Part shown: positions 986 to 62,873 of the stretch, piece after piece
Layout: every line of letters begins with the position of its first letter
Numbering within the stretch: position 1 is the stretch's first letter
Origin: Eledone cirrhosa
Lineage: Eukaryota
Assembly: GCA_964016885.1 (NCBI GenBank)
Contig: OZ024744.1
Span: forward strand, 134,788,001-134,852,000
Reading direction: 5' to 3'
Length of the DNA: 64,000 bases
Position numbers and translations under genes: made by a program
The notes under the pieces: model-generated
Told to the model about the DNA's origin: nothing
Database searches by the model: none
Seen by the model: only the letters and a program-made list of their open reading frames with translations

Positions 986-1202
986 AACCCCAACTTAACT
1001 TAACCCCAACTTAACTTAACCCCAACTTCACTCAACCCCAACGTAACTCAACCCCAACTTAACTTAACCCCAACTTCACTCAACCCCAACTTAACTTAAC
1101 CCCAACTTCACTCAACCCCAACTTAAGTCAACCCCAACTTAACTTAACCCCAACTTGACTTAACCCCAACTTAACTTAGCCCCAACTTAACTTAAGCCCA
1201 AA
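986..1202 (-). repeat. Inverted-monomer cassette 1 (class A, contains AACTTAAGTCAACC)
   Basis: GGGGTT|AACCCC at 985/986, then (AACCCCAACTTAACTT)n, ending CTTAAGCCCAAAGTC. Confidence 0.95.
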
Positions 1203-2124
1203 GTCGGGGTTGAGTTAAGTTGGCGTTAAGTTAAGTTAGGCTTAACTTAAGTTGGGGGTAAGTTAAGTTGGGGGTAAGTTAAGTTGGGGTTAAGTTAAGT
1301 TGCGGTTAAGTTGGGGTTAAGTTAAGTTAGGGTTAAGTTAAGTTGGCGTTGAGTTAAGTTGGGGTTAATTAAGTGGTGGTTATGTTAAGTTGGGGTTAAT
1401 TTAAATTGGGGTGAAGTTAACTTTGTGGTTAAGTTAAGTTGGGGTTAAGTTAAGTTGGGGTTAAGTTCGGGTTGAGTTAAGTTGGGGTTGAGTGAAGTTG
1501 GGGTTAAGTTAAGTTGGGGTAAAGTTAAGTTGGGGTTAAGTTAAGTCGGTGTTAAGTTAAGTTGTGGTTGAGTTAAGTTGGGGTTAATTTAAGTTGGGGC
1601 TAAGTTAATTTGTGGTTAAGTTAAGTTGGGGTTAAGTTAAGTTGGGGTTAAGTTAAGTTGGGGTTAAGTTAAGTTGCAGTTAAGTTAAGTTGAGGTTCAG
1701 TTAAGTTGGGGTTAAGTTAAGTTGGGGTTAAGTTAAGTTGGGGTTCAGTTAAGTTGGGGTTAAGTTAAGTTGGGGTTAAGATGGGGTTAAATTAAGTTGG
1801 GGTTAAGTTAAGTTGGGGTTAAGTTAAGTTGGGGTTAAGTTAAGTTGGGGTTAATTTAAGTCGGGGTTAAGTTAAGTCGGGGTTAAGTTAAGTTAGGGTT
1901 CAGTTAAGTTGGGGTTAAGTTAAGTTGGGGTTGAGTTAAGTTGGGGTTGAGTTAAATTGGGGTTGAGTTAAGTTGGGGTTGAGTTAAGTTGGTGTTGAGT
2001 TAAGTTGGGGTTAAGTTAAGTTGGGGTTAAGTTAAGTTGCAGTTAAGTTAAGTTGAGGTTAAGTTAAGGTGCGGTTAAGTTAAGTTGGGGTTAAGTTAAG
2101 TTGGGGCTAAGTTAAGTTGGGGTT

Positions 2125-2341
2125 AACCCCAACTTAACTTAACCCCAACTTAACTTAACCCCAACTTCACTCAACCCCAACGTAACTCAACCCCAACTTA
2201 ACTTAACCCCAACTTCACTCAACCCCAACTTAACTTAACCCCAACTTCACTCAACCCCAACTTAAGTCAACCCCAACTTAACTTAACCCCAACTTGACTT
2301 AACCCCAACTTAACTTAGCCCCAACTTAACTTAAGCCCAAA
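2125..2341 (-). repeat. Inverted cassette 2 (class A)
   Basis: Same junctions and variants as cassette 1. Confidence 0.95.
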
Positions 2342-3706
2342 GTCGGGGTTGAGTTAAGTTGGCGTTAAGTTAAGTTAGGCTTAACTTAAGTTGGGGGTAA
2401 GTTAAGTTGGGGGTAAGTTAAGTTGGGGTTAAGTTAAGTTGCGGTTAAGTTGGGGTTAAGTTAAGTTAGGGTTAAGTTAAGTTGGCGTTGAGTTAAGTTG
2501 GGGTTAATTAAGTGGTGGTTATGTTAAGTTGGGGTTAATTTAAATTGGGGTGAAGTTAACTTTGTGGTTAAGTTAAGTTGGGGTTAAGTTAAGTTGGGGT
2601 TAAGTTGGGGTTGAGTTAAGTTGGGGTTGAGTGAAGTTGGGGTTAAGTTAAGTTGGGGTAAAGTTAAGTTGGGGTTAAGTTAAGTCGGGGTTAAGTTAAG
2701 TTGTGGTTGAGTTAAGTTGGGGTTAATTTAAGTTGGGGCTAAGTTAATTTGTGGTTAAGTTAAGTTGGGGTTAAGTTAAGTTGGGGTTAAGTTAAGTTGG
2801 GGTTAAGTTAAGTTGCAGTTAAGTTAAGTTGAGGTTAAGTTAAGTTGGGGTTAAGTTAAGTTGGGGTTAAGTTAAGTTGGGGCTAAGTTAAGTTGGGGCT
2901 AAGTTAAGTTGGGGTTAATTTAAGTTGGGGTTAAGTTAAGTTGGGGTTAAGTTAAGTTGGGGTTAAGTTAAGTTGGTGTTAAGTTAAGTTGGGGCTAAGT
3001 TAAGTTGAGGCTGAGTTAAGTTGGGGCTGAGTTAAGTTGGGGTTAAGTTAAGTTGGGGTTGAGTTAAGTTGGGGTTAAGTTAAGTTGGGGTCAAGTTAAG
3101 TTGGGGTTAAGTTGGGGTTAATTTAAGTTAGGTTTAAGTTAAGTTGGGGTTAAGTTAAGTTGGGGTTAAGTTAAGTTGGGGTTAAGTTAAGTTGGGGTTA
3201 AGTTAAGTCGGGGTTAAGTTAAGTTGGGGTTAAGTTAAGTTGGGGTTAATTTAAGTTGGGGTTAAGTTAAGTTGGGGTTAAGTTAAGTTGGGGTTAATTT
3301 AAGTTGGGGATAATTTAAGTTGGGGTTAAGTTAAGTTTGGGTTTAAGTTAAGTTGGGGTTAAGTTAAGTTGGGGTTAAGTTAAGTTGGGGTTAAGTTAAT
3401 TTGTGGTTAAGTTAAGTTGGGGTTAAGTTAAGTTGGGGTTGAGTTAAGTTGGGGCTGAGTTAATTTGGGGTTAAGTTAAGTTGGGGTTAAGTTGGGTTTA
3501 AGTTAAGTTGGGGTTAAATTAAGTTGGGGTTAAATTAAGTTGGGGTTAAGTTAAGTTGGGGGTAAGTTAAGTTGGGGTTAATTTAAGTTGGGGTTAATTA
3601 AGTTGGGGTTAAGTTAAGTTGGGGTTAAGTTAAGTTGGGGTTAAGTTAAGTTGGGGTCAAGTTAAGTTGGGGTTAAGTTAAGTTGGGGTTAAGTTAAGTT
3701 GGGGTT

Positions 3707-3923
3707 AACCCCAACTTAAGTTAACCCCAACTTAACTTAATACCAACTTCACTCAACCCCAACGTAACTCAACCCCAACTTAACTTAACCCCAACTTCAC
3801 TCAACCCCAACTTAACTTAACCCCAACTTCACTCAATCCCAACTTAAGTCAACCCCAACTTAACTTAACCCCAACTTGACTTAACCCCAACTTAACTTAG
3901 CCACAACTTAACTTAAGCCCAAA
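3707..3923 (-). repeat. Inverted cassette 3 (class A, AATACCAAC subtype)
   Basis: Same junctions; variants CTTAAGTTAACC and TAATACC. Confidence 0.95.
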
Positions 3924-4557
3924 GTCGGGGTTAAGTTAAGTTGGCGTTAAGTTAAGTTAGGCTTAACTTAAGTTGGGGGTAAGTTAAGTTGGGGGTAAGT
4001 TAAGTTGGGGTTAAGTTAAGTTGCGGTTAAGTTTGGGTTAAGTTAAGTTAGGGTTAAGTTAAGTTGGCGTTGAGTTAAGTTGGGGTTAATTAAGTGGTGG
4101 TTATGTTAAGTTGGGGTTAATTTAAATTGGGGTGAAGTTAACTTTGTGGTTAAGTTAAGTTGGGGTTAAGTTGGGGTTGAGTTAAGTTGGGGTTGAGTGA
4201 AGTTGGGGTTAAGTTAAGTTGGGGTAAAGTTAAGTTGGGGTTAAGTTAAGTCGGGGTTAAGTTAAGTTGTGGTTGAGTTAAGTTGGGGTTAATTTAAGTT
4301 GGGGCTAAGTTAATTTGTGGTAAAGTTAAGTTGGGGTTAAGTTAAGTTGGGGTTAAGTTAAGTTGGGGTTACGTTAAGTTGCAGTTAAGTTAAGTTGAGG
4401 TTAAGTTAAGTTGGGGTTAAGTTAAGTTGGGGTTAAGTTAAGTTGGGGTTCAGTTAAGTTGGGGTTAAGTTAAGTTGGGGTTAAGATGGGGTTAAATTAA
4501 GTTGGGGTTAAGTTAAGTTGGGGTTAAGTTAAGTTGGGGTTAAGTTAAGTTGGGGTT

Positions 4558-4774
4558 AACCCCAACTTAACTTAACCCCAACTTAACTTAACCCCAACTT
4601 CACTCAACCCCAACGTAACTCAACCCCAACTTAACTTAACCCCAACTTCACTCAACCCCAACTTAACTTAACCCCAACTTCACTCAACCCCAACTTAAGT
4701 CAACCCCAACTTAACTTAACCCCAACTTGACTTAACCCCAACTTAATTTAGCCCCAACTTAACTTAAGCCCAAA
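4558..4774 (-). repeat. Inverted cassette 4 (class A)
   Basis: Same junctions and variants. Confidence 0.95.
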
Positions 4775-6013
4775 GTCGGGGTTGAGTTAAGTTGGCGTTA
4801 AGTTAAGTTAGGCTTAACTTAAGTTGGGGGTAAGTTAAGTTGGGGGTAAGTTAAGTTGGGGTTAAGTTAAGTTGCGGTTAAGTTGGGGTTAAGTTAAGTT
4901 AGGGTTAAGTTAAGTTGGCGTTGAGTTAAGTTGGGGTTAATTAAGTGGTGGTTATGTTAAGTTGGGGTTAATTTAAATTGGGGTGAAGTTAACTTTGTGG
5001 TTAAGTTAAGTTGGGGTTAAGTTAAGTTGGGGTTAAGTTGGGGTTGAGTTAAGTTGGAGTTGAGTGAAGTTGGGGTTAAGTTAAGTTGGGGTAAAGTTAA
5101 GTTGGGGTTAAGTTAAGTCGGGGTTAAGTTAAGTTGTGGTTGAGTTAAGTTGGGGTTAATTTAAGTTGGGGCTAAGTTAATTTGTGGTTAAGTTAAGTTG
5201 GGGTTAAGTTAAGTTGGGGTTAAGTTAAGTTGGGGTTAAGTTAAGTTGCAGTTAACTTAAGTTGAGGTTCAGTTAAGTTGGGGTTAAGTTAAGTTGGGGT
5301 TAAGTTAAGTTGGGGTTCAGTTAAGTTGGGGTTAAGTTAAGTTGGGGTTAAGATGGGGTTAAATTAAGTTGGGGTTAAGTTAAGTTGGGGTTAAGTTAAG
5401 TTGGGGTTAAGTTAAGTTGGGGTTAATTTAAGTCGGGGTTAAGTTAAGTCGGGGTTAAGTTAAGTTAGGGTTCAGTTAAGTTGGGGTTAAGTTAAGTTGG
5501 GGTTGAGTTAAGTTGGGGTTGAGTTAAATTGGGGTTGAGTTAAGTTGGGGTTGAGTTAAGTTGGTGTTGAGTTAAGTTGGGGTTAAGTTAAGTTGGGGTT
5601 AAGTTAAGTTGCAGTTAAGTTAAGTTGAGGTTAAGTTAAGGTGCGGTTAAGTTAAGTTGGGGTTAAGTTAAGTTGGGGCTAAGTTAAGTTGGGGTTAAGT
5701 TACGTTGGGGTTAAGTTAAGTCGGGGTTAAGTTAAGTTGGGGTTAAGTTAAGTTGGGGTTAATTTAAGTTGGGGTTAAGTTAAGTTGGGGTTAAGTTTAG
5801 TTGGGGTTAAGTTAAGTTGGGGTTAAGTTAAGTTGGGTTTAAGTTAAGTTGGGGTTAAGTTAAGTTGGGGTCAAGTTAAGTTGGGGTTAAGTTAAGTTGG
5901 TTAGTTAAGTTGAGTTTAAGTTAAGTTGGGGTTAATTTAAGTTGGGGTTAAGTTAAGTTGGGGTTAAGTTAAGTTGGGGTTAAGTTAAGTTGGGGTTAAG
6001 TTAAGTTGGGGTT

Positions 6014-6182
6014 AACCCCAACTTAACTTAACCCCAACTTAACTTAACCCCAACTTCACTCAACCCCAACTTAACTTAACCCCAACTTCACTCAACCCAA
6101 ACTTAAGTCAACCCCAACTTAACTTAACCCCAACTTGACTTATCCCCAACTTAACTTAGCCCCAACTTAACTTAAGCCCAAA
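6014..6182 (-). repeat. Inverted cassette 5 (class A, three monomers shorter)
   Basis: Same junctions; lacks the ACGTAACTC unit. Confidence 0.95.
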
Positions 6183-9131
6183 GTCGGGGTTGAGTTAAGT
6201 TGGCGTTAAGTTAAGTTAGGCTTAACTTAAGTTGGGGGTAAGTTAAGTTGGGGGTAAGTTAAGTTGGGGTTAAGTTAAGTTGCGGTTAAGTTGGGGTTAA
6301 GTTAAGTTAGGGTTAAGTTAAGTTGGCGTTGAGTTAAGTTGGGGTTAATTAAGTGGTGGTTATGTTAAGTTGGGGTTAATTTAAATTGGGGTGAAGTTAA
6401 CTTTGTGGTTAAGTTAAGTTGGGGTTAAGTTAAGTTGGGGTTAAGTTGGGGTTGAGTTAAGTTGGGGTTGAGTGAAGTTGGGGTTAAGTTAAGTTGGGGT
6501 AAAGTTAAGTTGGGGTTAAGTTAAGTCGGGGTTAAGTTAAGTTGTGGTTGAGTTAAGTTGGGGTTAATTTAAGTTGGGGCTAAGTTAATTTGTGGTTAAG
6601 TTAAGTTGGGGTTAAGTTAAGTTGGGGTTAAGTTAAGTTGGTGTTAAGTTAAGTTGCAGTTAAGTTAAGTTGAGGTTAAGTTAAGTTGGGGTTAAGTTAA
6701 GTTGGGGTTAAGTTAAGTTGGGGCTAAGTTAAGTTGGGGCTAAGTTAAGTTGGGGCTAAGTTAAGTTGGGGTTAAGTTAAGTTGGGGTTAAGTTAAGTTG
6801 GGGTTAAGTTAAGTTGGGGTTAAGTTAAGTTGGTGTTGAGTTAAGTTGGGGCTAAGTTAAGTTGGGGCTGAGTTAAGTTGGGGCTGAGTTAAGTTGGGGT
6901 TAAGTTAAGTTGGGGTTGAGTTAAGTTGGGGTTAAGTTAAGTTGGGGTCAAGTTAAGTTGGGGTTAAGTTGGGGTTAATTTAAGTTAGGTTTAAGTTAAG
7001 TTGGGGTTAAGTTAAGTTGGGGTTAAGTTAAGTTGGGGTTAAGTTAAGTTGGGGTTAAGTTAAGTTGGGGTTAAGTTAATTTGTGGTTAAGTTAAGTTGG
7101 GGTTAAGTTAAGTTGGGGTTAAGTTAAGTTGGGGTTAAGTTAAGTCGGGGTTAAGTTAAGTTGGGGTTAAGTTAAGTTGGGGTTAATTTAAGTTGGGGTT
7201 AAGTTAAGTTGGGGTTAATTTAAGTTGGGGTTAAGTTAAGCTGGGGTTAAGTTAAGTTGGGGTTAAGTTAAGTTGGGGTTAATTTAAGTTGGGGTTAATT
7301 TAAGTCGGGGTTAAGTTAAGTTGTGGTTGAGTTAAGTTGGGGTTAATTTAAGTTGGGGCTAAGTTAATTTGTGGTTAAGTTAAGTTGGGGTTAAGTTAAG
7401 TTGGGGTTAAGTTAAGTTGGGGTTGAGTTAAGTTGGGGTTGAGTTAATTTGGGGTTAAGTTAAGTTGGGGTTAAGTTAAGTTGGGTTTAAGTTAAGTTGG
7501 GGTTAAATTAAGTTGGGGTTAAATTAAGTTGGGGTTAAGTTAAGTTGGGGTTAAGTTAAGTAGGGGGCAAGTTAAGTTGGGGTTAATTTAAGTTGGGGTT
7601 AAATTAAGTTGGGGTTACGTTAAGTTGGTGTTAAGTTAAGTTGGGGTTAATTTAAGTTGGGTTGAGTTAAGTTGGGGTTCAGTTAAGTTGGGGATAAGTT
7701 AAGTTGGGGTTAAGTTAAGTTGGGGTTAATTAAGTTGGGGTTAAGTTAAGTTGGGGTTAAGTTAAGTTGGGGCTAAGTTAAGTTGGGGCTGAGTTAAGTT
7801 GGGGCTGAGTTAAGTTGGGGTTAAGTTAAGTTGGGGTTGAGTTAAGTTGGGGTTAAGTTAAGTTGGGGTCAAGTTAAGTTGGGGTTAAGTTGGGGTTAAG
7901 TTAAGTTAGGTTTAAGTTAAGTTCGGGTTAAGTTAATTTGTGGTTTAGTTAAGTTTGGGTTAAGTTAAGTTGGGGTTAAGTTAAGTTGGGGTTAAGTTAA
8001 GTCGTGGTTAAGTTAAGTTGGGGTTAAGTTAAGTTGGAGTTAAGTTAAGTTGGGGTTAAGTTAAGTTGGGGTTAAGTTAAGTTGGGGTTAAGTTAAGTTG
8101 GGGTTAAGTTAAGTTGAGGTTAAGTTAAGTTGGGGTCAAATTAAGTTGGGGTTAAGTTAAGTTGGGGTTAAGTTAAGTTGGGGATAAGTTAAGTTGGGGA
8201 TAATTTAAGTTGGGGTTAAGTTAAGTTGGGGTTAAGTTAAGTTGGGGTTAAGTTAAGTTGGGGATAAGTTAAGTTGGGGTTAAGTTAAGTTGGGGTTAAG
8301 TTAAGTTGGGGTTAAGTTAAGTTGGGGCTAAGTTAAGTTGGGGCTGAGTTAAGTTGGGGTTAAGTTAAGTTGGGGTTAAGTTAAGTTGGGGTTAAGTTAA
8401 GTTGGGGTTAATTTAAGTTGGGGTTTATTTAAGTTGGGGTTAAGTTAAGTTGGGGTTCAGTTAAGTTGGGGTTAAGTTAAGTTGGGGTTAAATGGGGTTA
8501 AATTAAGTTGGGGTTAAGTTAAGTTGGGGTTAAGTTAACTTGGGGTTAAGTTAAGTCGGGGTTAAGTTAAGTCGGGGTTAAGTTAAGTTAGGGTTCAGTT
8601 AAGTTGGGGTTAAGTTAAGTTTGGGTTGAGTTAAGTTGGGGTTGAGTTAAATTGGGGTTGAGTTAAGTTGGGGTTGAGTTAAGTTGGTGTTGAGTTAAGT
8701 TGGGGTTAAGTTAAGTTGGGGTTAAGTTAAGTTGCAGTTAAGTTAAGTTGAGGTTAAGTTAAGGTGCGGTTAAGTTAAGTTGGGGTTAAGTTAAGTTGGG
8801 GCTAAGTTAAGTTGGGGCTAAGTTAAGTTGGGGCTAAGTTAAGTTGGGGTTAAGTTACGTTGGGGTTAAGTTAAGTCGGGGTTAAGTTAAGTTGGGGTTA
8901 AGTTAAGTTGGGGTTAATTTAAGTTGGGGTTATGTTAAGTTGTGGTTAAGTTAAGTTGGGGTTAAGTTAAGTTGGGGTTAAGTTGGGTTTAAGTTAAGTT
9001 GGGGTTAAGTTAAGTTGGGGTCAAGTTAAGTTGGGGTTAAGTTAAGTTGGTTAGTTAAGTTGAGTTTAAGTTAAGTTGGGGTTAATTTAAGTTGGGGTTA
9101 AGTTAAGTTGGGGTTAAGTTAAGTTGGGTTT

Positions 9132-9300
9132 AACCCCAACTTAAGTTAACCCCAACTTAACTTAATACCAACTTCACTCAACCCCAACGTAACTCAACCC
9201 CAACTTAACTTAACCCCAACTTCACTCAACCCCAACTTAACTTAACCCCAACTTGACTTAACCCCAACTTAACTTAGCCCCAACTTAACTTAAGCCCAAA
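9132..9300 (-). repeat. Inverted cassette 6 (short AATACCAAC subtype, imperfect left junction)
   Basis: Left junction GGGTTT|AACCCC; conserved right junction. Confidence 0.95.
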
Positions 9301-9811
9301 GTCGGGGTTAAGTTAAGTTGGCGTTAAGTTAAGTTAGGCTTAACTTAAGTTGGGGGTAAGTTAAGTTGGGGGTAAGTTAAGTTGGGGTTAAGTTAAGTTG
9401 CGGTTAAGTTGGGGTTAAGTTAAGTTAGGGTTAAGTTAAGTTGGCGTTGAGTTAAGTTGGGGTTAATTAAGTGGTGGTTATGTTAAGTTGGGGTTAATTT
9501 AAATTGGGGTGAAGTTAACTTTGTGGTTAAGTTAAGTTGGGGTTAAGTTGGGGTTGAGTTAAGTTGGGGTTGAGTGAAGTTGGGGTTAAGTTAAGTTGGG
9601 GTAAAGTTAAGTTGGGGTTAAGTTAAGTCGGGGTTAAGTTAAGTTGTGGTTGAGTTAAGTTGGGGTTAATTTAAGTTGGGGCTAAGTTAATTTGTGGTTA
9701 AGTTAAGTTGGGGTTAAGTTAAGTTGGGGTTAAGTTAAGTTGGGGTTAAGTTAAGTTGCAGTTAAGTTAAGTTGAGGTTAAGTTAAGTTGGGGTTAAGTT
9801 AAGTTGGGGTT

Positions 9812-10028
9812 AACCCCAACTTAACTTAACCCCAACTTAACTTAACCCCAACTTCACTCAACCCCAACGTAACTCAACCCCAACTTAACTTAACCCCAAC
9901 TTCACTCAACCCCAACTTAACTTAACCCCAACTTCACTCAACCCCAACTTAAGTCAACCCCAACTTAACTTAACCCCAACTTGACTTATCCCCAAATTAA
10001 CTTAGCCCCAACTTAACTTAAGCCCAAA
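9812..10028 (-). repeat. Inverted cassette 7 (class A, TATCCCCAAATT subtype)
   Basis: Same junctions; shares private variants with cassette 9. Confidence 0.95.
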
Positions 10029-15261: not shown

Positions 15262-15430
15262 AACCCCAACTTAAGTTAACCCCAACTTAACTTAATACCA
15301 ACTTCACTCAACCCCAACGTAACTCAACCCCAACTTAACTTAACCCCAACTTCACTCAACCCCAACTTAACTTAACCCCAACTTGACTTAACCCCAACTT
15401 AACTTAGCCCCAACTTAACTTAAGCCCAAA
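15262..15430 (-). repeat. Inverted cassette 8 (copy of cassette 6)
   Basis: Appears identical to 9132-9300. Confidence 0.95.
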
Positions 15431-16685: not shown

Positions 16686-16902
16686 AACCCCAACTTAACT
16701 TAACCCCAACTTAACTTAACCCCAACTTCACTCAACCCCAACGTAACTCAACCCCAACTTAACTTAACCCCAACTTCACTCAACCCCAACTTAACTTAAC
16801 CCCAACTTCACTCAACCCCAACTTAAGTCAACCCCAACTTAACTTAACCCCAACTTGACTTATCCCCAAATTAACTTAGCCCCAACTTAACTTAAGCCCA
16901 AA
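16686..16902 (-). repeat. Inverted cassette 9 (copy of cassette 7)
   Basis: TATCCCCAAATT variant; flank GTGGTGGTTACG. Confidence 0.95.
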
Positions 16903-49800: not shown

Positions 49801-50495
49801 AGTTAAGTTGGGGTTAAGTTAAGTTGGGGTTTATTTAAGTTGGGGTTAAGTTAAGTTGGGGTTCAGTTAAGTTGGGGTTCAGTTAAGTTGGGGTTAAGTT
49901 AAGTTGGGGTTAAGATGGGGTTAAATTACGTTGGAGTTAAGTTAAGTTCGGGTTAAGTTAAGTTGGGGTTAAGTTAAGTTGGGGTTAAGTTAAGTCGGGG
50001 TTAATTTAAGTCGGGGTTAAGTTAAGTTAGGGTTCAGTTAAGTTGGGGTTAAGTTAAGTTGGGGTTGAGTTAAGATGGGGTTCAGTTAAATTGGGGTTAA
50101 GTTAAGTTGCAGTTAAGTTAAGTTGAGGTTAAGTTAAGGTGCAGTTAAGTTAAGTTGGGGTTAAGTTAAGTTGGGGCTAAGTTAAGTTGGGGCTAAGTTA
50201 AGTTGGGGCTAAGTTAAGTTGGGGTTAAGTTAAGTTGGGGTTAAGTTAAGTCGGGGTTAAGTTAAGTTGGGGTTAAGTTAAGTTGGGGTTAATTTAAGTT
50301 GGGGTTAAGTTAAGTTGGGGTTAAGTTAAGTTGGGTTTAAGTTAAGTTGGGGTTAAGTTAAGTTGGGGTTAAGTTAAGTTGGGGTTAAGTTAAGTTGGTT
50401 AGTTAAGTTGAGTTTAAGTTAAGTTGGGGTTAATTTAAGTTGGGGTTAAGTTAAGTTGGGGTTAAGTTAAGTTGGGGTTAAGATAAGTTGGGGTT

Positions 50496-50666
50496 AACCC
50501 CAACTTAACCCCAACTTCACTCAACCCCAACGTAACTCAACCCCAACTTAACTTAACCCCAACTTCACTCAACCCCAACTTAACTTAACCCCAACTTCAC
50601 TCAACACCAACTTCCAACTTGACTTAACCCCAACTTAACTTAGCCCCAACTTAACTTAAGCCCAAA
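50496..50666 (-). repeat. Inverted cassette 22 (class B)
   Basis: Starts with an 11-bp unit; CAACACC variant. Confidence 0.95.
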
Positions 50667-52419: not shown

Positions 52420-52595
52420 AACCCCAACTTAACTTAACCCCAACTTCACTCAACCCCAACGTAACTCAACCCCAACTTAACTTAACCCCAACTTCACTCA
52501 ACCCCAACTTAACTTAACCCCAACTTCACTCAACCCCAACTTCCAACTTGACTTAACCCCAACTTAACTTAGCCCCAACTTAACTTAAGCCCAAA
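52420..52595 (-). repeat. Inverted cassette 23 (class B)
   Basis: Same junctions. Confidence 0.95.
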
Positions 52596-54500
52596 GTCGG
52601 GGTTAAGTTAAGTTGGCGTTAAGTTAAGTTGGCGTTAAGTTAAGTTAGGCTTAACTTAAGTTGGGGTTCAGTTAAGTTTGGGGTAAGTTAAGTTAGGGGT
52701 AAGTTAAGTTGGGGGTAAGTTAAGTTGGGGTTAAGTTAAGTTGCGGTTAAGTTGGGGTTAAGTTAAGTTAGGGTTAAGTTAAGTTGGGGTTGAGTTAAGT
52801 TGGGGTTAATTAAGTGGTGGTTATGTTAAGTTGGGGTTAAGTTAAGTTGGGGTTAATTTAAATTGGGGTTAAGTTAACTTTGTGGTTAAGTTAAGTTGGG
52901 GTTAAGTTAAGTTGGGGTAAAGTTGGGGTTGAGTTAAGTTGGGGTTGAGTGAAGTTGGGGTTAAGTTAAGTTGGGGTTAAGTTAAGTTGGGGTTAAGATA
53001 AGTCGGGGTTAAGTTAAGTTGTGGTTGATTTAAGTTGGGGTTAATTTAAGTTGGGGCTAAGTTAATTTGTGGTTAAGTTAAGTTAGGGTTAAGTTAAGTT
53101 GGGGTTAAGTTAAGTTGGGGTTGAGTTAAGTTGGGGTTGAGTTAATTTGGGGTTAAGTTAAGTTGGGGTTAAGTTAAGTTGGGTTTAAGTTAAGTTGGGG
53201 GCAAGTTAATTTGGGGTTAATTTAAGTTGGGGTTAAATTAAGTTGTGGTTACGTTAAGTTGGTGTTAAGTTAAGTTGGGGTTAATTTAAGTTGGGGTTAA
53301 TTAAGTTGGGGTTAAGTTAAGTTGGTGTTAAGTTAAGTTGGGGTTAATTTAAGTTGGGGTTGAGTTAAGTTGGGGTTAAGTTAAGTAGGGGTTATATTAA
53401 GTTGGGGTTAAGTTAAGTTGGGGTTCAGTTAAGTTGGGGTTAAGTTAAGTTGGGGTTAAGTTAAGTTGAGGTTAAGTTAAGTTGGGGTTAAGTTAAGTTG
53501 GTGTTAAGTTAAGTTGGGGCTAAGTTAAGTTGGGGTTGAGTTAAGTTGGGGTTAAGTTGGGGTTAAGTTAAGTTAGGTTTAAGTTAAGTTGGGGTTAAGT
53601 TAAGTTGGGGTTAAATTAAGTTGGGGTTAAGTTAAGTTGGGGTTAAGTTAAGTTGGGGTTGAGTTAAGTTGGGGATAAGTTAAGTTGGGGATAATTTAAG
53701 TTGGGGTTAAGTTAAGTTGGGTTTAAGTTAAGTTGGGGTTAAGTTAAGTTGGGGTTAAGTTAAGTTGGGGTTAAGTTAAGTTGGGGTTAAGTTAAGTTGG
53801 GGCTAAGTTAAGTTGGGGCTGAGTTAAGTTGGGGTTAAGTTAAATTGGGGTTAAGTTAAGTTGGGGTTAAGTTAAGTTGGGGTTAAGTTAAGTTGGGGTT
53901 TATTTAAGTTGGGGTTAAGATGGGGTTAAATTAAGTTGGGGTTAAGTTAAGTTGGGGTTAAGTTAAGTTGGGGTTAAGCTAAGTTGGGGTTAAGTTCAGT
54001 CGGGGTTAAGTTAAGTCGGGGTTAAGTTAAGTTAGGGTTCAGTTAAGTTGGGGTTAAGTTAAGTTGGGGTTGAGTTAAGTTGGGGTTGAGTTAAGTTGGG
54101 GGTAAGTTAAGTTGGGGTTAAGTTAAGTTGCAGTTAAGTTAAGTTGAGGTTAAGTTAAGGTGCGGTTAAGTTAAGTTGGGGTTAAGTTAAGTTGGGGCTA
54201 AGTTAAGTTGGGGCTAAGTTAAGTTGGGGCTAAGTTAAGTTTGGGTTAAGTTAAGTCGGGGTTAAGTTAAGTTGGGGTTAAGTTAAGTTGGGGTTAACTT
54301 AAGTTGGGGTTAAGTTAAGTTGGGGTTAAGTTAAGTTGGGGTTAAGTTAAGTTGGGGTTGAGTTAAGTTGGGTTTAAGTTAAGTTGGGGTTAAGTTAAGT
54401 TGGTTAGTTAAGTTGAGTTTAAGTTAAGTTGGGGTTAATTTAAGTTGGGGTTAAGTTAAGTTGGGGTTAAGTTAAGTTGGGGTTAAGTTAAGTTGGGTTT

Positions 54501-54701
54501 AACCCCAACTTAACTTAAACCCAACTTCACTCAACCCCAACGTAACTCAACCCCAACTTAACTTAACCCCAACTTCACTCAACCCCAACTTAACTTAACC
54601 CCAACTTCACTCAACACCAACTTAAGTCAACCCCAACTTAACTTAACCCCAACTTGACTTAACCCCAACTTAAATTAGCCCCAACTTAACTTAAGCCCAA
54701 A
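54501..54701 (-). repeat. Inverted cassette 24 (copy of 21)
   Basis: Same private variants as cassette 21. Confidence 0.95.
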
Positions 54702-57700
54702 GTCGGGGTTAAGTTAAGTTGGCGTTATGTTAAGTCAGGCTTAACTTAAGTTGGGGTTCAGTTAAGTTGGGGGTAAGTTAAGTTGCGGGTAAGTTAAGTT
54801 GGGGTTAAGTTAAGTTGCGGTTAAGTTGGGGTTAAGTTAAGTTAGGGTTAAGTTAAGTTGGGGTTGAGTTAAGTTGGGGTTAATTAAGTGGTGGTTATGT
54901 TAAGTTGGGGTTAATTTAAATTGGGGTTAAGTTGACTTTGTGGTTAAGTTAAGTTGGGGTTAAGTTAAGTTGGGGTTAAGTTGGGGTTGAGTTAAGTTGG
55001 GGTTGAGTGAAGTTGGGGTTAAGTTAAGTTGGGGTAAAGTTAAGTTGGGGTTAAGTTAAGTCGGGGTTAAGTTAAGTTGTGGTTGAGTTAAGTTGGGGTT
55101 AATTTAAGTTGGGGCTAAGTTAATTTGTGGTTAAGTTAAGTTGGGGTTAAGTTAAGTTGGGGTTAAGTTAAGTTGGGGTTGAGTTAAGTTGGGGTTGAGT
55201 TAAGTTGGGGTTAAGTTAAGTTGGGGTCAAGTTAAGTTGGGGTTAAGTTGGGGTTAAGTTAAGTTAGGTTTAAGTTAAGTTGGGGTTAAGTTAAGTTGGG
55301 GTTAAGTTAAGTTGGGGTTAAGTTAAGTTGGGGTTAAGTTAAGTTGGGGTTAAGTTAATTTGTGGTTAAGTTAAGTTGGGGTTAAGTTAAGTTGGGGTTA
55401 AGTTAAGTCGGGGTTAAGTTAAGTTGGGGTTAAGTTAAGTTTGGGTTAATTTAAGTTGGGGTTAAGTTAAGTTGGGGTTAAATTAAGTTGGGGTTAAGTT
55501 AAGTTGGGGTTTAGTTAAGTTGGTGTTAAGTTAAGTTGGGGCTAAGTTAAGTTGGGGCTGAGTTAAGTTGGGGCTGAGTTAAGTTGTGGTTAAGTTAAGT
55601 TGGGGTTAAGTTAAGTTGGGGTTAAGTTAAGTCGGGGTTAAATTAAGTTGGGGTTAAGTTAAGTTGGGGTTAATTTAAGTTGGGGTTAAGTTATGTTGGG
55701 GTTAAGTTAATTGGGGTTAAGTTAAGTTGGGGTTAAGTTAAGTTGAGGTTAAGTTAAGTTAGGGTTAAATTAAGTTGGGGTTAAGTTAAGTTGGGGTTAA
55801 GTTAAGTTGGGTTAAGTTAAGTTGGGGATAAGTTAAGTTGGGGATAATTTAAGTTGGGGTTAAGTTAAGTTGGGTTTAAGTTAAGTTGGGGTTAAGTTAA
55901 GTTGGGGCTAAGTTAAGTTGGGGCTAAGTTAAGTTGGGGTTAAGTTAAGTTGGGGTTAAGTTAAGTCGGGGTTAAGTTAAGTTGGGGTTAAGTTAAGTTG
56001 GGGTTAATTTAAGTTGGGGTTGAGTTAAGTTGGTGTTGAGTTAAGTTGGGGTTAAGTTAAGTTGGGGTTAAGTTAAGTTGCAGTTAAGTTAAGTTGAGGT
56101 TAAGTTAAGGTGCGGTTAAGTTAAGTTGGGGTTAAGTTAAGTTGGGGCTAAGTTAAGTTGGGGCTAAGTTACGTTGGGGTTAAGTTAAGTTGGGGTTAAG
56201 TTAAGTCGGGGTTAATTTAAGTTGGGGTTAAGTTAAGTTGGGGTTAATTTAAGTTGGGGTTAAGTTAATTTGGGGTTAAGTTAAGTTGGGGTTAAGTTAA
56301 GTTGGGGTTAAGTTAAGTTGGGTTTAAGTTAAGTTGGGGTTAAGTTAAGTTGGGGTTGAGTTAAGTTGGGGCTGAGTTAATTTGGGGTTAAGTTAAGTTG
56401 GGGTTAAGTTAAGTTGGGTTTAAGTTAAGTTGGGGTTAAATTAAGTTGGGGTTAAATTAAGTTGGGGTTAAGTTAAGTTGGGGGTAAGTTAAGTTGGGGG
56501 CAAGTTAAGTTGGGGTTAATTTAAGTTGGGGTTAAATTAAGTTGGGGTTACGTTAAGTTGGTGTTAAGTTAAGTTGGGGTTAATTTAAGTTGGGGTTAAT
56601 TAAGTTGGGGTTAAGTTAAGTTGGGGTTAAGTTAAGTTGGGGTTAATTTAAGTTGGGGTTGAGTTAAGTTGGGGTTAAGTTAAGTTGGGGTTATATTAAG
56701 TTGGGGTTAAGTTAAGTTGGGGTTCAGTTAAGTTGGGGTTAAGTTAAGTTGGGGTTAAGTTAAGTTGAGGTTAAGTTAAGTTGGGGTTAAGTTAAGTTGG
56801 TGTTAAGTTAAGTTGGGGCTAAGTTAAGTTGGGGTTGAGTTAAGTTGGGGTTAAGTTGGGGTTAAGTTAAGTTAGGTTTAAGTTAAGTTGGGGTTTAGTT
56901 AAGTTGGGGTTAAGTTAAGTTGTGGTTAAGTTAAGTTGGGGTTAAGTTAAGTTGGGGTTAAGTTAAGTCGGGGTTAAGTTAAGTTGGGGTTAATTTAAGT
57001 TGGGGTTAATTTAAGTTGGGGTTAAGTTAAGTTGGGGTTAAGTTAAGTTGGGGTTAAGTTAATTGGGGTTAAGTTAAGTTGGGGTTAAGTTAAGTTGAGG
57101 TTAAGTTAAGTTGGGGTTAAATTAAGTTTGGGTTAAGTTAAGTTGGGGTTAAGTTAAGTTGGGGTTAAGTTAAGTTGGGGATAAGTTAAGTTGGGGATAA
57201 TTTAAGTTGGGGTTAAGTTAAGTTGGGTTAAATTAAGTTGGGGTTAAGTTAAGTTGGGGTTAAGTTAAGTTGGGGTTAAGTTAAGTTGGGGTTAAGTTAA
57301 GTTGGGGCTAAGTTAAGTTGGGGCTGAGTTAAGTTGGAGTTCAGTTAAGTTGGGGTTAAGTTAAGTTGGGGTTAAGTTAAGTTGGGGTTAATTTAAGTTG
57401 GGGTTAAGTTAAGTTGCGGGTAATTTAAGTTGGGGTTAAGTTAAGTTGGGGTTAAGTTAAGTTGGGGTTAAGTTAAGTTGGGGTTAAGTTAAGTTGGGGC
57501 TAATTTAAGTTGGGGCTGAGTTAAGTTGGGGTTAAGTTAAGTTGGGGTTAAGTTAAGTTGGGATTAAGTTAAGTTGGGGTTAAGTTAAGTTGGGGTTTAT
57601 TTAAGTTGGGGTTAAGTTAAGTTGGGGTTCAGTTAAGTTGGGGTTCAGTTAAGTTGGGGTTAAGTTAAGTTGGGGTTAAGATGGGGTTAAATTACGTTGG

Positions 57701-58261
57701 AGTTAAGTTAAGTTCGGGTTAAGTTAAGTTGGGGTTAAGTTAAGTTGGGGTTAAGTTAAGTCGGGGTTAATGTAAGTCGGGGTTAAGTTAAGTTAGGGTT
57801 CAGTTAAGTTGGGGTTAAGTTAAGTTGGGGTTGAGTTAAGATGGGGTTCAGTTAAATTGGGGTTAAGTTAAGTTGCAGTTAAGTTAAGTTGAGGTTAAGT
57901 TAAGGTGCAGTTAAGTTAAGTTGGGGTTAAGTTAAGTTGGGGCTAAGTTAAGTTGGGGCTAAGTTAAGTTGGGGCTAAGTTAAGTTGGGGTTAAGTTAAG
58001 TTGGGGTTAAGTTAAGTCGGGGTTAAGTTAAGTTGGGGTTAAGTTAAGTTGGGGTTAATTTAAGTTGGGGTTAAGTTAAGTTGGGGTTAAGTTAAGTTGG
58101 GTTTAAGTTAAGTTGGGGTTAAGTTAAGTTGGGGTTAAGTTAAGTTGGGGTTAAGTTAAGTTGGTTAGTTAAGTTGAGTTTAAGTTAAGTTGGGGTTAAT
58201 TTAAGTTGGGGTTAAGTTAAGTTGGGGTTAAGTTAAGTTGGGGTTAAGATAAGTTGGGGTT

Positions 58262-58432
58262 AACCCCAACTTAACCCCAACTTCACTCAACCCCAACGTA
58301 ACTCAACCCCAACTTAACTTAACCCCAACTTCACTCAACCCCAACTTAACTTAACCCCAACTTCACTCAACACCAACTTCCAACTTGACTTAACCCCAAC
58401 TTAACTTAGCCCCAACTTAACTTAAGCCCAAA
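58262..58432 (-). repeat. Inverted cassette 25 (copy of 22)
   Basis: Same private variants as cassette 22. Confidence 0.95.
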
Positions 58433-60152
58433 GTCGGGGTTAAGTTAAGTTGGCGTTAAGTTAAGTTGGCGTTAAGTTAAGTTAGGCTTAACTTAAGTTG
58501 GGGTTCAGTTAAGTTGGGGGTAAGTTAAGTTGGGAGTAAGTTAAGTTGGGGGTAAGTTAAATGGGGTTAAGTTAAGTTGCGGTTAAGTTGGGGTTAAGTT
58601 AAGTTAGGGTTAAGTTAAGTTGGGGTTGAGTTAAGTTGGGGTTAATTAAGTGGTGGTTATGTTAAGTTGGGGTTAAGTTAAGTTGGGGTTAATTTAAATT
58701 GGGGTTAAGTTAACTTTGTGGTTAAGTTAAGTTGGGGTTAAGTTAAGTTGGGGTAAAGTTGGGGTTGAGTTAAGTTGGGGTTGAGTGAAGTTGGGGTTAA
58801 GTTAAGTTGGGGTTAAGTTAAGTTGGGGTTAAGATAAGTCGGGGTTAAGTTAAGTTGTGGTTGATTTAAGTTGGGGTTAATTTAAGTTGGGGCTAAGTTA
58901 ATTTGTGGTTAAGTTAAGTTAGGGTTAAGTTAAGTTGGGGTTAAGTTAAGTTGGGGTTGAGTTAAGTTGGGGTTGAGTTAATTTGGGGTTAAGTTAAGTT
59001 GGGGTTAAGTTAAGTTGGGTTTAAGTTAAGTTGGGGTTAAATTAAGTTGGGGTTAAATTAAGTTGGGGTTAAGTTAAGTTGGGGGTAAGTTAAGTTGGGG
59101 GCAAGTTAATTTGGGGTTAATTTAAGTTGGGGTTAAATTAAGTTGTGGTTACGTTAAGTTGGTGTTAAGTTAAGTTGGGGTTAATTTAAGTTGGGGTTGA
59201 GTTAAGTTGGGGTTAAGTTAAGTTGGGGTTATATTAAGTTGGGGTTAAGTTAAGTTGGGGTTCAGTTAAGTTGGGGTTAAGTTAAGTTGGGGTTAAGTAA
59301 AGTTGAGGTTAAGTTAAGTTGGGGTTAAGTTAAGTTGGTGTTAAGTTAAGTTGGGGCTAAGTTAAGTTGGGGTTGAGTTAAGTTGGGGTTAAGTTGGGGT
59401 TAAGTTAAGTTAGGTTTAAGTTAAGTTGGGGTTAAGTTAAGTTGGGGTTAAGTTAAGTTGTGGTTAAGTTAAGTTGGGGTTAAGTTAAGTTGGGGTTAAG
59501 TTAAGTCGGGGTTAAGTTAAGTTGGGGTTAATTTAAGTTGGGGTTAATTTAAGTTGGGGTTAAGTTAAGTTGGGGTTAAGTTAATTGGGGTTAAGTTAAG
59601 TTGGGGTTAAGTTAAGTTGAGGTTAAGTTAAGTTGGGGTTAAATTAAGTTTGGGTTAAGTTAAGTTGGGGTTAAGTTAAGTTGGGGTTAAGTTAAGTTGG
59701 GGTTAAGTTAAGTTGGGGTTAAGTTAAGTTGGGGTTAAGTTAAGTTGGGGCTAAGTTAAGTTGGGGCTGAGTTAAGTTGGAGTTACGTTAAGTTGGGGTT
59801 AAGTTAAGTTGGGGTTAAGTTAAGTTGGGGTTAATTTAAGTTGGGGTTAAGTTAAGTTGCGGGTAATTTAAGTTGGGGTTAAGTTAAGTTGGGGTTAAGT
59901 TAAGTTGGGGTTAAGTTAAGTTGGGGTTAAGTTAAGTTGGGGCTAATTTAAGTTGGGGCTGAGTTAAGTTGGGGTTAAGTTAAGTTGGGGTTAAGTTAAG
60001 TTGGGATTAAGTTAAGTTGGGGTTAAGTTAAGTTGGGGTTTATTTAAGTTGGGGTTAAGTTAAGTTGGGGTTCAGTTAAGTTGGGGTTCAGTTAAGTTGG
60101 GGTTAAGTTAAGTTGGGGTTAAGTTAAGTTGGGGTTAAGATAAGTTGGGGTT

Positions 60153-60328
60153 AACCCCAACTTAACTTAACCCCAACTTCACTCAACCCCAACGTAACTC
60201 AACCCCAACTTAACTTAACCCCAACTTCACTCAACCCCAACTTAACTTAACCCCAACTTCACTCAACCCCAACTTCCAACTTGACTTAACCCCAACTTAA
60301 CTTAGCCCCAACTTAACTTAAGCCCAAA
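60153..60328 (-). repeat. Inverted cassette 26 (copy of 23)
   Basis: Same flanks as cassette 23 (TTTGGGGTAAG, TTAGGGGTAAG). Confidence 0.95.
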
Positions 60329-62697
60329 GTCGGGGTTAAGTTAAGTTGGCGTTAAGTTAAGTTGGCGTTAAGTTAAGTTAGGCTTAACTTAAGTTGGGGT
60401 TCAGTTAAGTTTGGGGTAAGTTAAGTTAGGGGTAAGTTAAGTTGGGGGTAAGTTAAGTTGGGGTTAAGTTAAGTTGCGGTTAAGTTGGGGTTAAGTTAAG
60501 TTAGGGTTAAGTTAAGTTGGGGTTGAGTTAAGTTGGGGTTAATTAAGTGGTGGTTATGTTAAGTTGGGGTTAAGTTAAGTTGGGGTTAATTTAAATTGGG
60601 GTTAAGTTAACTTTGTGGTTAAGTTAAGTTGGGGTTAAGTTAAGTTGGGGTAAAGTTGGGGTTGAGTTAAGTTGGGGTTGAGTGAAGTTGGGGTTAAGTT
60701 AAGTTGGGGTTAAGTTAAGTTGGGGTTAAGATAAGTCGGGGTTAAGTTAAGTTGTGGTTGATTTAAGTTGGGGTTAATTTAAGTTGGGGCTAAGTTAATT
60801 TGTGGTTAAGTTAAGTTAGGGTTAAGTTAAGTTGGGGTTAAGTTAAGTTGGGGTTGAGTTAAGTTGGGGTTGAGTTAATTTGGGGTTAAGTTAAGTTGGG
60901 GTTAAGTTAAGTTGGGTTTAAGTTAAGTTGGGGGCAAGTTAATTTGGGGTTAATTTAAGTTGGGGTTAAATTAAGTTGTGGTTACGTTAAGTTGGTGTTA
61001 AGTTAAGTTGGGGTTAATTTAAGTTGGGGTTAATTAAGTTGGGGTTAAGTTAAGTTGGTGTTAAGTTAAGTTGGGGTTAATTTAAGTTGGGGTTGAGTTA
61101 AGTTGGGGTTAAGTTAAGTAGGGGTTATATTAAGTTGGGGTTAAGTTAAGTTGGGGTTCAGTTAAGTTGGGGTTAAGTTAAGTTGGGGTTAAGTTAAGTT
61201 GAGGTTAAGTTAAGTTGGGGTTAAGTTAAGTTGGTGTTAAGTTAAGTTGGGGCTAAGTTAAGTTGGGGTTGAGTTAAGTTGGGGTTAAGTTGGGGTTAAG
61301 TTAAGTTAGGTTTAAGTTAAGTTGGGGTTAAGTTAAGTTGGGGTTAATTTAAGTTGTGGGTAAGTTAAGTTGGGGTTAAGTTAAGTTGGGGTTAAGTTAA
61401 GTCGGGGTTAAGTTAAGTTGGGGTTAATTTAAGTTGGGGTTAATTTAAGTTGGGGTTAAGTTAAGTTGGGGTTAAGTTAAGTTGGGGTTAAGTTAAGTTG
61501 GGGTTAAATTAAGTTTGGGTTAAGTTAAGTTGGGGTTAAGTTAAGTTGGGGTTAAGTTAAGTTGGGGATAAGTTAAGTTGGGGATAATTTAAGTTGGGGT
61601 TAAGTTAAGTTGGGTTTAAGTTAAGTTGGGGTTAAGTTCAGTTGGGGTTAAGTTAAGTTGGGGTTAAGTTAAGTTGGGGTTAAGTTAAGTTGGGGCTAAG
61701 TTAAGTTGGGGCTGAGTTAAGTTGGAGTTAAGTTAAGTTGGGGTTAAGTTAAGTTGGGGTTAAGTTAAGTTGGGGTTAATTTAAGTTGGGGTTAAGTTAA
61801 GTTGCGGGTAATTTAAGTTGGGGTTAAGTTAAGTTGGGGTTAAGTTAAGTTGGGGTTAAGTTAAGTTGGGGTTAAGTTAAGTTGGGGCTAATTTAAGTTG
61901 GGGCTGAGTTAAGTTGGGGTTAAGTTAAGTTGGGGTTAAGTTAAGTTGGGATTAAGTTAAGTTGGGGTTAAGTTAAGTTGGGGTTTATTTAAGTTGGGGT
62001 TAAGTTAAGTTGGGGTTCAGTTAAGTTGGGGTTCAGTTAAGTTGGGGTTAAGTTAAGTTGGGGTTAAGATGGGGTTAAATTACGTTGGAGTTAAGTTAAG
62101 TTGGGGTTAAGTTAAGTTGGGGTTAAGTTAAGTTGGGGTTAAGTTAAGTCGGGGTTAATTTAAGTCGGGGTTAGGTTAAGTTAGGGTTCAGTTAAGTTGG
62201 GGTTAAGTTAAGTTGGGGTTGAGTTAAGATGGGGTTCAGTTAAATTGGGGTTGAGTTAAGTTGGGGTTGAGTTAAGTTGGTGTTGAGTTAAGTTGGGGTT
62301 AAGTTAAATTGGGGTTAAGTTAAGTTGCAGTTAAGTTAAGTTGAGGTTAAGTTAAGGTGCGGTTAAGTTAAGTTGGGGTTAAGTTAAGTTGGGGCTAAGT
62401 TAAGTTGGGGCTAAGTTAAGTTGGGGTTAATTTAAGTTGGGGTTAAGTTAAGTCGGGGTTAAGTTAAGTTGGGGTAAAGTTAAGTTGGGGTTAAGTTAAG
62501 TCGGGGTTAAGTTAAGTTGTGGTTGAGTTAAGTTGGGGTTAATTTAAGTTGGGGCTAAGTTAAGTTGGGGTTAAGTTAAGTTGGGGTTAAGTTAAGTTGG
62601 TTAGTTAAGTTGAGTTTAAGTTAAGTTGGGGTTAATTTAAGTTGGGGTTAAGTTAAGTTGGGGTTAAGTTAAGTTGGGGTTAAGTTAAGTTGGGGTT

Positions 62698-62873
62698 AAC
62701 CCCAACTTAACTTAACCCCAACTTCACTCAACCCCAACGTAACTCAACCCCAACTTAACTTAACCCCAACTTCACTCAACCCCAACTTAACTTAACCCCA
62801 ACTTCACTCAACCCCAACTTCCAACTTGACTTAACCCCAGCTTAACTTAGCCCCAACTTAACTTAAGCCCAAA
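62698..62873 (-). repeat. Inverted cassette 27 (class B)
   Basis: Same junctions. Confidence 0.95.

Follow-up and report, generated by a model that had tools for sequence, protein, structure and literature searches.

Background

Satellite arrays in which one strand switch recurs many times have precedents. In Tribolium madens and T. freemani, inversion sites forming macro-dyad symmetries have been amplified to thousands of near-identical copies, and their conserved junctions have been interpreted as functional, with the hairpin function being a proposal in the available text (PMC13081366, PMC12581902). Among human satellites, the HSat3B5 (chr9) and beta-satellite arrays carry more than 200 strand switches and an alpha-satellite array holds a 1.7-Mb inversion (10.1101/2021.07.12.452052). 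These Tribolium and human arrays are published exceptions to the premise, adopted in the original prediction for the present locus, that satellite inversions are rare. In cichlid centromeric arrays satellite blocks also alternate in orientation, with a possible centromeric meaning, and on most chromosomes transposon-like elements of 15 kb lie between four large blocks (PMC13652916). At the scale of single events, small inverted triplications and ODIRA products show a forward-inverted-forward order, with an inverted part of median length ~160 bp and junctions at short inverted repeats; as described, these events are rare and unstable (PMC13334657, PMC10766186). In DUP-TRP/INV-DUP rearrangements, inverted repeats of kilobases at 100% identity serve as template-switch substrates (PMC11293582).

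Here we describe a 64,000-bp stretch of the Eledone cirrhosa genome (the window), a satellite array punctuated by short inverted cassettes. Like the Tribolium satellites it has stereotyped, amplified inversion sites whose junctions contain no foreign sequence. However, where the Tribolium inverted subarrays span kilobases, tend to symmetry and occur on many chromosomes (PMC13081366, PMC12581902), the inverted islands of this array measure 0.05-0.5 kb (cassettes of 52-523 bp), have paired junctions and are confined, among the matches listed, to one array, in which internal controls and exchange scars could be examined. It shares with human HSat3B5 and beta-satellite a simple-sequence satellite with many strand switches; the human text, supplements aside, is silent on one copied junction pair or on the seeding of larger inversions (10.1101/2021.07.12.452052). 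Here, unlike in the cichlid arrays, the standard junctions are free of foreign elements. Two fold-back junctions enclosing a short inverted piece recall ODIRA, but the flanking duplicate of the inverted piece that defines ODIRA in the available descriptions was not found in this array, where age may have erased it, and the cassettes are amplified about a thousandfold. DUP-TRP/INV-DUP offers a likeness for one block with both ends in cassettes (L088, below), although the exact matches here are 14-56 bp long, in a satellite ~95% like its consensus. Our literature search, supplements aside, found no account of amplified strand switches, cross-orientation conversion in arrays or HSat3 inversions matching this case, no published account of the monomer and, judged from titles and abstract starts, no study of cephalopod satellite arrays. 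What is new here are four independent rearrangements that join cassette interiors to the forward array.

Results and discussion

The array and its inverted cassettes

The whole window (1..64000, forward strand) is a satellite array, (TTAAGTTAAGTTGGGG)n, of 4,099 monomer pieces with a period of 16 bp and 5.4% mismatch to the consensus. It is part of a long head-to-tail array of this short monomer, as is characteristic of satellite DNA, that extends over ~8.4 Mb (G000:C28, about 126.9-135.33 Mb), at a distance of 1.2-9.6 Mb from the end of the contig. A telomeric repeat would be expected at the chromosome end; the contig terminus consists of other repeats, and the assembly possibly stops short of the telomere. 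Variant monomers recur as ordered modules, giving a higher-order structure in which the modules are shuffled without a fixed period. The satellite is also present on contigs C2, C3 and C18. Rfam contains no family for it, and matches of miRNA models over the cassettes fall far under the gathering scores. A LINE endonuclease flanks the array; the only named match among 23 is from Octopus bimaculoides, at 62%.

A two-strand Viterbi decomposition of the window recovered exactly 27 C-rich segments, all on the reverse strand. Cassettes 1-4 lie at 984..1200 (217 bp), 2123..2339, 3705..3921 and 4556..4772, and are followed by cassette 5 (169 bp) at 6012..6180 and cassettes 6-10 at 9129..9298, 9810..10026, 15259..15428, 16684..16900 and 19804..20020. 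Cassettes 11-15 are located at 22924..23140, 24380..24596, 28059..28274, 30485..30701 and 31167..31381, cassette 16, of a 176-bp subtype, at 33289..33464, and cassettes 17-20 at 36682..36857, 39130..39305, 42523..42698 and 44241..44416. Cassette 21, of a 202-bp subtype, occupies 46625..46826, and the last six are at 50494..50664, 52418..52593, 54498..54699, 58260..58430, 60151..60326 and 62696..62871. Their lengths range over 169-217 bp (10.5-13.5 monomers), they make up 5,152 of the 64,000 bp, and their spacing is irregular (mean 2,374 bp, range 680-5,450 bp). The variant CTTCACTC occurs two or three times per cassette in all 27; CTTGACTT is likewise present in every cassette, ACGTAACTC in 26, CTTAGCCCC in 23, and the junction 19-mer singled out in the original prediction in 25. 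Decomposition and motif counts thus agree with the predicted 27 flips from G-rich to C-rich and back, through the same two junctions, with common internal variants and a mean spacing of ~2.4 kb. The motif CCCCAAC has no occurrence outside the cassettes in the 64-kb window, which excludes chance as their source.

The cassette is part of a longer common block. By eye, the same ~20 forward monomers follow the return junction in all 27 units (in the first unit a variant-rich module at 1201..1500, forward strand, end approximate, used below as an internal neutral control), and the same forward module precedes the cassette in 21 of the 27 (881..983, forward strand, start approximate). TTAA-targeting or foldback transposons insert at independent sites with target-site duplication; such an element was rejected as a source, given these common flanks and the presence of TTAA at one end only.

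The two junctions

Both junctions are fold-backs at short inverted repeats. Junction 1 is a zero-spacer TTAA palindrome centred on GGGGTT|AACCCC, which in the first cassette is perfect over 943..1028, with arms of 43 bp; among the window cassettes the arms are 2-43 bp long. Junction 2, the return junction, is a CCC-AAAGTC-GGG fold-back with a 6-base loop (1186..1212 in the first cassette). In silico, 441 bases across the first junction are predicted to fold at -199 kcal/mol against -33 for a forward control, consistent with the proposal that the cassettes would let single strands fold back. For junction 2 there is also read support: a 68-base contig from run X1, possibly the assembly's own sample, crosses it with one mismatch at a depth of 950. 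In raw reads of three other samples from one study, position 1203 is covered away from read ends 15, 28 and 14 times, with a G>T junction variant, the same as in loci L008 and L009, in 10, 2 and 8 of these reads, respectively. The read table thus indicates that reads of these samples cross junction 2, so that the suggested check of the junctions in raw reads comes out in favour of the return junction, directly in short-read contigs and by inference in raw reads. Four sequencing runs under other organism labels contained the monomer and no contig crossing junction 2.

A census of strand switches points to a single origin

The genome-wide junction count that had been proposed yielded 968 matches to a junction-2 pattern. 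None falls between 124.69 and 130.248 Mb, leaving ~3.3 Mb of the array without a cassette, and none is on C2, C3 or C18 among the matches listed, where the sorted lists begin on C28. We then considered 120 loci covering 1.2 Mb of satellite, a sample weighted toward cassette-rich domains and including L066 from a directed search. The count of strand switches leaves aside L059 (C2), L060 (C3), L081-L086 (C18), the array edges L067 and L068, L069 and L072-L074 outside the array, and 14 loci without array sequence. On this basis, 604 of 605 switches belong to the two ancestral junction types, and 27 of the 120 loci have no switch; one new return junction was found (L132:8306). A cassette marker monomer lies within 90 bp of the first junction in 293 of 298 instances; the other five are four deletion derivatives and one junction cut by the locus end. 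Cassette lengths have a median of 213 bp in the census. The interiors share marker monomers in nested subtypes, whose distribution along the array follows its domains, and junction 2 has an idiosyncratic common core. With 604 of 605 switches being of two types, it is likely that one fold-back (template-switch) event gave rise to all cassettes and was then amplified, in line with the original prediction of one micro-inversion captured in a higher-order unit. A forward copy of the cassette markers, or a pre-inversion allele, was not found in the sampled loci, barring edge misclassifications and the L088 event.

Probable scars of exchange between the strands

Of the four rearrangements joining a cassette interior to the forward array, two are short inverted tracts, one is an inverted block of 2.5 kb and one is an end of an inverted domain of 0.56 Mb; where it could be measured, the shared sequence is 14-56 bp long. 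All four are known from the assembly sequence, in which three of them are single copies. At L066:5377 the 0.56-Mb C-rich domain, of which cassettes make up 1.9%, terminates in an isolated junction 2, where 17 bp are shared. Its predicted reciprocal end had no match to a tight pattern, the expected end being at an assembly gap, and a looser pattern gave 141 matches that were swamped by the C18 array. Two big orientation changes nearby, in L063 and L067, also lie at 200-N gaps. The inverted block at L088:3659-6141 starts and ends within cassettes, with 14 and 56 bp shared, and contains the only 2 reversed junctions among the 180 of that class; its ends come from different cassette subtypes, so that it is not a simple in-place flip. 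At L011:8443-8891 a 12-monomer forward module is found in inverted form, with 15 and 27 bp shared, and L008 and L095 carry one further inverted tract; that of L008 includes 74 bp without a donor among the sampled loci. One tract is arranged exactly mirror-wise, 125 bp on either side of junction 1. Scars of opposite-orientation exchange are thus seen at three size scales, every one landing in cassettes. These joins suggest that the cassettes are likely to act as substrates of strand switching too, and predict, for other complete assemblies, that large within-satellite inversions would have their breakpoints in pre-existing small inverted islands.

Passengers or specially retained units?

The array provides a direct internal control for the view that the cassettes, having been kept despite reshuffling, are functional. 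Forward markers in the window have 20-33 copies (four of them 27, 27, 26 and 26), once-per-unit forward markers have a spacing CV of 0.41-0.60 against 0.47 for the cassette, and forward-marker diversity (pi) is 0.012-0.050 against 0.019-0.075. A toy neutral model, whose sole rule is that cross-orientation exchange is forbidden and whose results follow largely from that rule, was rerun with fewer steps after a first run had left 2 survivors in 300. The cassette then survived in 39 of 1,500 runs, reaching a median of 34 copies compared to 27.5 for any surviving monomer, and both edges were kept in a fraction of 1.00 of cassette copies versus 0.00 for a forward control block. Geometry alone thus keeps the cassette whole in the model, and suggests that it may by itself yield the kind of junction conservation that has been read as function. 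Given forward markers with equal copies and spacing and equal or lower diversity, megabases without cassettes, and the model, special retention is unsupported, either as a sign of function or against a neutral simulation. The suggestion of a recombination-driving unit can be kept in a weaker form only: it is likely that rare cross-strand exchanges use the cassettes as substrates, but junction 1 is no local breakpoint hotspot. We accordingly regard the cassettes as likely passengers in the array that also act as strand-switch substrates.

A probable mechanism and its alternatives

We consider it probable that a single fold-back origin was followed by passive amplification through unequal exchange, with the wholeness of the cassette arising from the rarity of opposite-orientation exchange and inversions being a side effect. 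The first cassette would have arisen through a pair of strand switches, each at short inverted repeats inside the monomer, and, as the observed pattern suggests, would have spread inside a shuffled higher-order unit to ~1,000 copies confined to parts of one array. Unequal exchange may shorten, lengthen or delete cassettes, as their range of lengths indicates, and in the model could not split them, so that the junctions would travel as a pair without selection. Rare cross-strand exchanges would land in cassettes because the array offers no other inverted homology, and could thereby bring copies of forward modules into cassettes and invert blocks ranging in size from kilobases to roughly half a megabase.

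Several other readings bear on the same observations. The cassette might be a self-perpetuating strand-switch portal, unsplittable, with a palindromic junction that provokes template switches, unit duplication and flips up to megabase size; we hold this to be doubtful, and were it true, small inverted islands would be the engine of large satellite inversions generally, human included. A related account, in which fork stalling or cleavage at the palindromic junction leads to repair that duplicates the unit carrying the cassette, draws on the instability of long palindromes (PMC10766186), on the involvement of a cassette in all five non-standard events found, and on the mirror-wise tract. It appears improbable, since homology is interrupted immediately to the left of junction 1 in 0.43 of pairs, a rate no higher than that next to ordinary markers (0.57-0.78), there is no enrichment of mirrored variants across junction 1 (3 versus a permutation mean of 20, the null being inflated by lineage structure), and the cassette is present in as many copies as the forward markers. 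It is similarly improbable, and perhaps a little more so, that the cassettes are a selected structural unit whose junction hairpins, cruciforms or dsRNA organise centromeric or heterochromatic chromatin. Junction 1 does retain perfect palindromes as long as 2 x 43 bp, which are stable in in-silico folding, few parts of the window are less reshuffled than the stretch running from junction 1 through ~25 forward monomers, and the same proposal has been published for Tribolium as a hypothesis (PMC13081366, PMC12581902); against this, the cassettes show no extra conservation over forward markers, their arm lengths, sizes and spacing vary, and there are megabase-scale cassette-free domains as well as, among the matches listed, arrays on other contigs that lack cassettes.

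A hotspot in the monomer, with independent inversions recurring there, could in principle remake the same junctions, the monomer being nearly self-complementary and one new return junction having been found at L132:8306, but the idiosyncratic junction-2 core and the marker monomers in nested subtypes, as shared derived features, largely refute this very unlikely account. Equally remote is an origin in sequencing or assembly artefacts such as fold-back chimeras: palindromes are artefact-prone and the large orientation changes of L063 and L067 coincide with gaps, yet junction 2 occurs in contigs built from short reads and apparently also in reads from other samples, the two arms differ from mirror copies, and the subtypes follow domains along the array.

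Canonical G4 motifs number 0 in the window with loops of up to 7 and 547 with loops of up to 12; these relaxed-loop motifs are a property of the whole array.

The inverted cassettes and their junctions

The whole window consists of one 16-bp satellite, (TTAAGTTAAGTTGGGG)n, which diverges by 5.4% from its consensus on monomer decomposition; the window occupies G000:C28:134,788,001-134,852,000, inside an array that extends from ~126.9 to 135.33 Mb of the 136.5-Mb contig C28 in a genome of 3.0 Gb. Two-strand decomposition of the window recovers 27 C-rich segments of 169-217 bp, spaced 680-5,450 bp apart (mean 2,374 bp). This confirms the original prediction of 27 recurrent inverted cassettes with common junctions every ~2.4 kb, and the internal markers that it described as shared are present in 23-27 of the 27. 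Every cassette is opened by junction 1, the switch from forward to inverted orientation, a zero-spacer palindrome in which GGGGTT abuts AACCCC (perfect arms of 2-43 bp), and closed by junction 2, the return switch CCC-AAAGTC-GGG, a fold-back whose loop has 6 bases. The long hairpins envisaged earlier are possible in silico, the predicted fold-back across junction 1 having -199 kcal/mol against -33 for a forward control, but any inverted satellite would give the same. Recent rearrangement is also visible: a 3,120-bp segment has been duplicated in tandem almost exactly (window 16684-22923), cassettes 10 and 11 being spaced by that distance, and 3,393-bp units lie at window 33289-36681 and 39130-42522.

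That the junctions might be artefactual fold-back chimeras is argued against by the two arms of junction 1, which are not mirror copies. Reads bear on junction 2 as well. A 68-base short-read contig, from a run that may be the assembly's own sample, spans it with one mismatch at a depth of 950. In raw reads of three other samples from one study, position 1203 is covered away from read ends 15, 28 and 14 times; we infer from the read table that these reads span junction 2, and some carry a G>T variant also seen in a different domain of the assembled array.

A probable single origin followed by amplification

The genome-wide junction count proposed at the outset found a degenerate junction-2 pattern 968 times and the exact junction-1 28-mer 658 times. 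In the 120 loci sampled, which contain 1.2 Mb of satellite, 604 of the 605 strand switches belong to the two junction types, point variants included. The cassette's marker monomer lies within 90 bp of junction 1 in 293 of 298 first junctions, the other five comprising four deletion derivatives and one cut by the locus end. All cassettes, with lengths of 52-523 bp and subtypes grouped by array domain, probably trace to one event that was later amplified, in agreement with the captured micro-inversion originally suggested. The sole switch outside the ancestral types (L132:8255-8306) has a new return junction, CCCCAA-G-TTGGGG, made at L132:8306 by a ~240-bp duplication that begins inside a cassette.

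The origin itself would involve template switching on two occasions, both at short inverted repeats, because junction shapes and size resemble those of small inverted triplications (PMC13334657) and ODIRA products (PMC10766186). The forward flanking duplicate of the inverted piece that defines such products was not found in the array loci examined, and so we do not claim membership of either class.

Two further features concern the cassette subtypes. An AT-rich repeat of 0.7-6 kb, within the array at C28 132.2-132.79 Mb (L010, L011, L041, L043, L061, L062), replaces junction 1 of one subtype, and this insertion has itself been amplified. Subtypes matching those of the same domain recur in a 90-kb C-rich array piece at C28 124.60-124.69 Mb (L034, L035, L067, L068), which starts inside a cassette beside a diverged related repeat; both piece and domain end at a 200-N gap, and the piece is likely a scaffolding displacement.

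Retention, putative exchange scars and alternative explanations

The cassette belongs to a block that extends beyond it: the forward markers that follow number 27, 27, 26 and 26, and other once-per-unit forward markers occur in 20-33 copies with a spacing CV of 0.41-0.60, as against 0.47 for the cassette. Nucleotide diversity (pi) is 0.019-0.075 in the cassette and junctions, the cassette value perhaps being inflated by monomer indels, and does not fall under the 0.012-0.050 of seven forward modules. The original prediction had read retention amid reshuffling as a possible sign of function; that part of it is not supported, since forward markers match the cassette in copy number, spacing CV and diversity, and a selected function of the cassettes appears very unlikely. 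Special retention as such is not supported either. One observation favors it: the block running from junction 1 through ~25 forward monomers ranks with the least broken parts of the window. Against it, megabases are cassette-free: junction-2 matches are absent at 124.69-130.248 Mb (~3.3 Mb of array), none of six loci at 133.36-134.4 Mb and none of three at 135.1-135.3 Mb has a switch, and loci lacking cassettes, L014 and L027 among them, contain the modules that adjoin cassettes in other places. Of the pairs compared, a fraction of 0.43 loses homology left of junction 1, against 0.57-0.78 beside several ordinary markers, so junction 1 is no hotspot; self-driven spread of the cassettes we regard as unlikely.

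Unequal exchange requires like orientation at both breakpoints, and would therefore resize or delete a cassette, never split it. In a toy simulation with this as its sole rule (1,500 runs, parameters adjusted after a first run) the cassette was lost in 1,461 runs. Surviving cassettes reached a median of 34 copies versus 27.5 for any surviving monomer, with both edges intact in every copy, and a forward control block was reduced to 1-3-monomer pieces. Neutral exchange under the orientation rule alone can thus keep surviving cassettes whole, although, the outcome being largely set by the rule and the adjusted parameters, the model demonstrates sufficiency and not history. Passive processes best account for both amplification and retention, and we consider it probable that the cassettes were amplified passively and occasionally served as strand-switch substrates.

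Four independent events (a-d) link cassette interiors with the forward array, a-c being each single copy and known from the assembly alone. In event a, a C-rich domain of ~0.56 Mb (132.795-133.355 Mb), 1.9% of it cassettes, ends at a lone junction 2 (L066:5377) followed by 2.4 cassette monomers and then, via 17 shared bases, a different forward lineage; the opposite end of the domain falls at an assembly gap, and a pattern search did not find the predicted reciprocal junction. Event b is a 2.5-kb inverted block (L088:3659-6141) with a re-inverted cassette inside, containing the only two reversed junctions among 180 of that class. Both its ends lie within cassettes, with 14 and 56 shared bases, and because they derive from different subtypes the block is explained better by two template switches than by a simple flip. 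In event c, a 12-monomer forward module is present in inverted form within the cassette at L011:8443-8891, with 15 and 27 bases shared. In event d, one cassette, found at both L008 and L095, includes the module normally left of junction 1, one marker lying 125 bp from the junction-1 center on either side; today's flank does not match as an exact donor and leaves 74 bp unaccounted for, which makes hairpin-templated copying no more than a lead. Reversed junction-2 matches total 87, with 26 in the 124.6-Mb piece and two in L088; the other 59 are consistent with how densely cassettes occur in event a's domain (17 per 160 kb), leaving little room for more large events. These scars would reflect inverted repeats acting as template-switch substrates, a pattern which they fit (PMC11293582).

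Amplified conserved inversion sites and arrays with many strand switches are already known. Such sites reach thousands of copies in Tribolium madens (PMC13081366) and T. freemani (PMC12581902), with function proposed and untested in both; human HSat3B5 and beta-satellite arrays have >200 breakpoints (10.1101/2021.07.12.452052), and cichlid centromeres have blocks of alternating orientation (PMC13652916). Unlike these, the present cassettes are short paired islands with an internal neutral control and exchange scars. A literature search, with subscription papers mostly outside its coverage, found no description of the 16-bp satellite or of such scars. The original interpretation is supported in part: for a single amplified origin, and not for special retention implying function.

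Genomic setting of the array

The 16-bp monomer is also borne by contigs C2, C3 and C18. Arrays at C18 9.9-10.3 Mb and C3 184.77 Mb have their own higher-order modules, with no strand switches in the stretches read. Near the middle of the 416-Mb contig C2 (L059, 209.30 Mb), a composite satellite alternates ~250 bp of 16-mer with a 270-bp spacer that matches repeats in L067 at 71-92%; spacer pieces adjoin the monomer in two sequencing runs labelled as other organisms, and the 16-mer may have originated within a longer unit, as one of its subrepeats.

The distal 17 Mb of C28 is satellite-rich, with unrelated satellites of 48, 41, 90 and 34 bp around the array (L020, L037, L039, L040; 119-135.5 Mb) and a diverged 26/32-bp satellite, like the 16-mer in style, at its border (L072, 135.35 Mb; L035:15-473). 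A tandem region at C28 124.69-125.8 Mb (L031-L033, L067) contains short rRNA-like fragments within subrepeats (weak SSU match) and histone 3' stem-loop matches exceeding the gathering score. A LINE endonuclease flanking the array has its sole named relative in Octopus bimaculoides (62%), and this one protein makes an octopod the likely source; immediately left of the array lies a minus-strand frame of 626 residues (L030:2880-4757) encoding tandem C2H2 zinc fingers.
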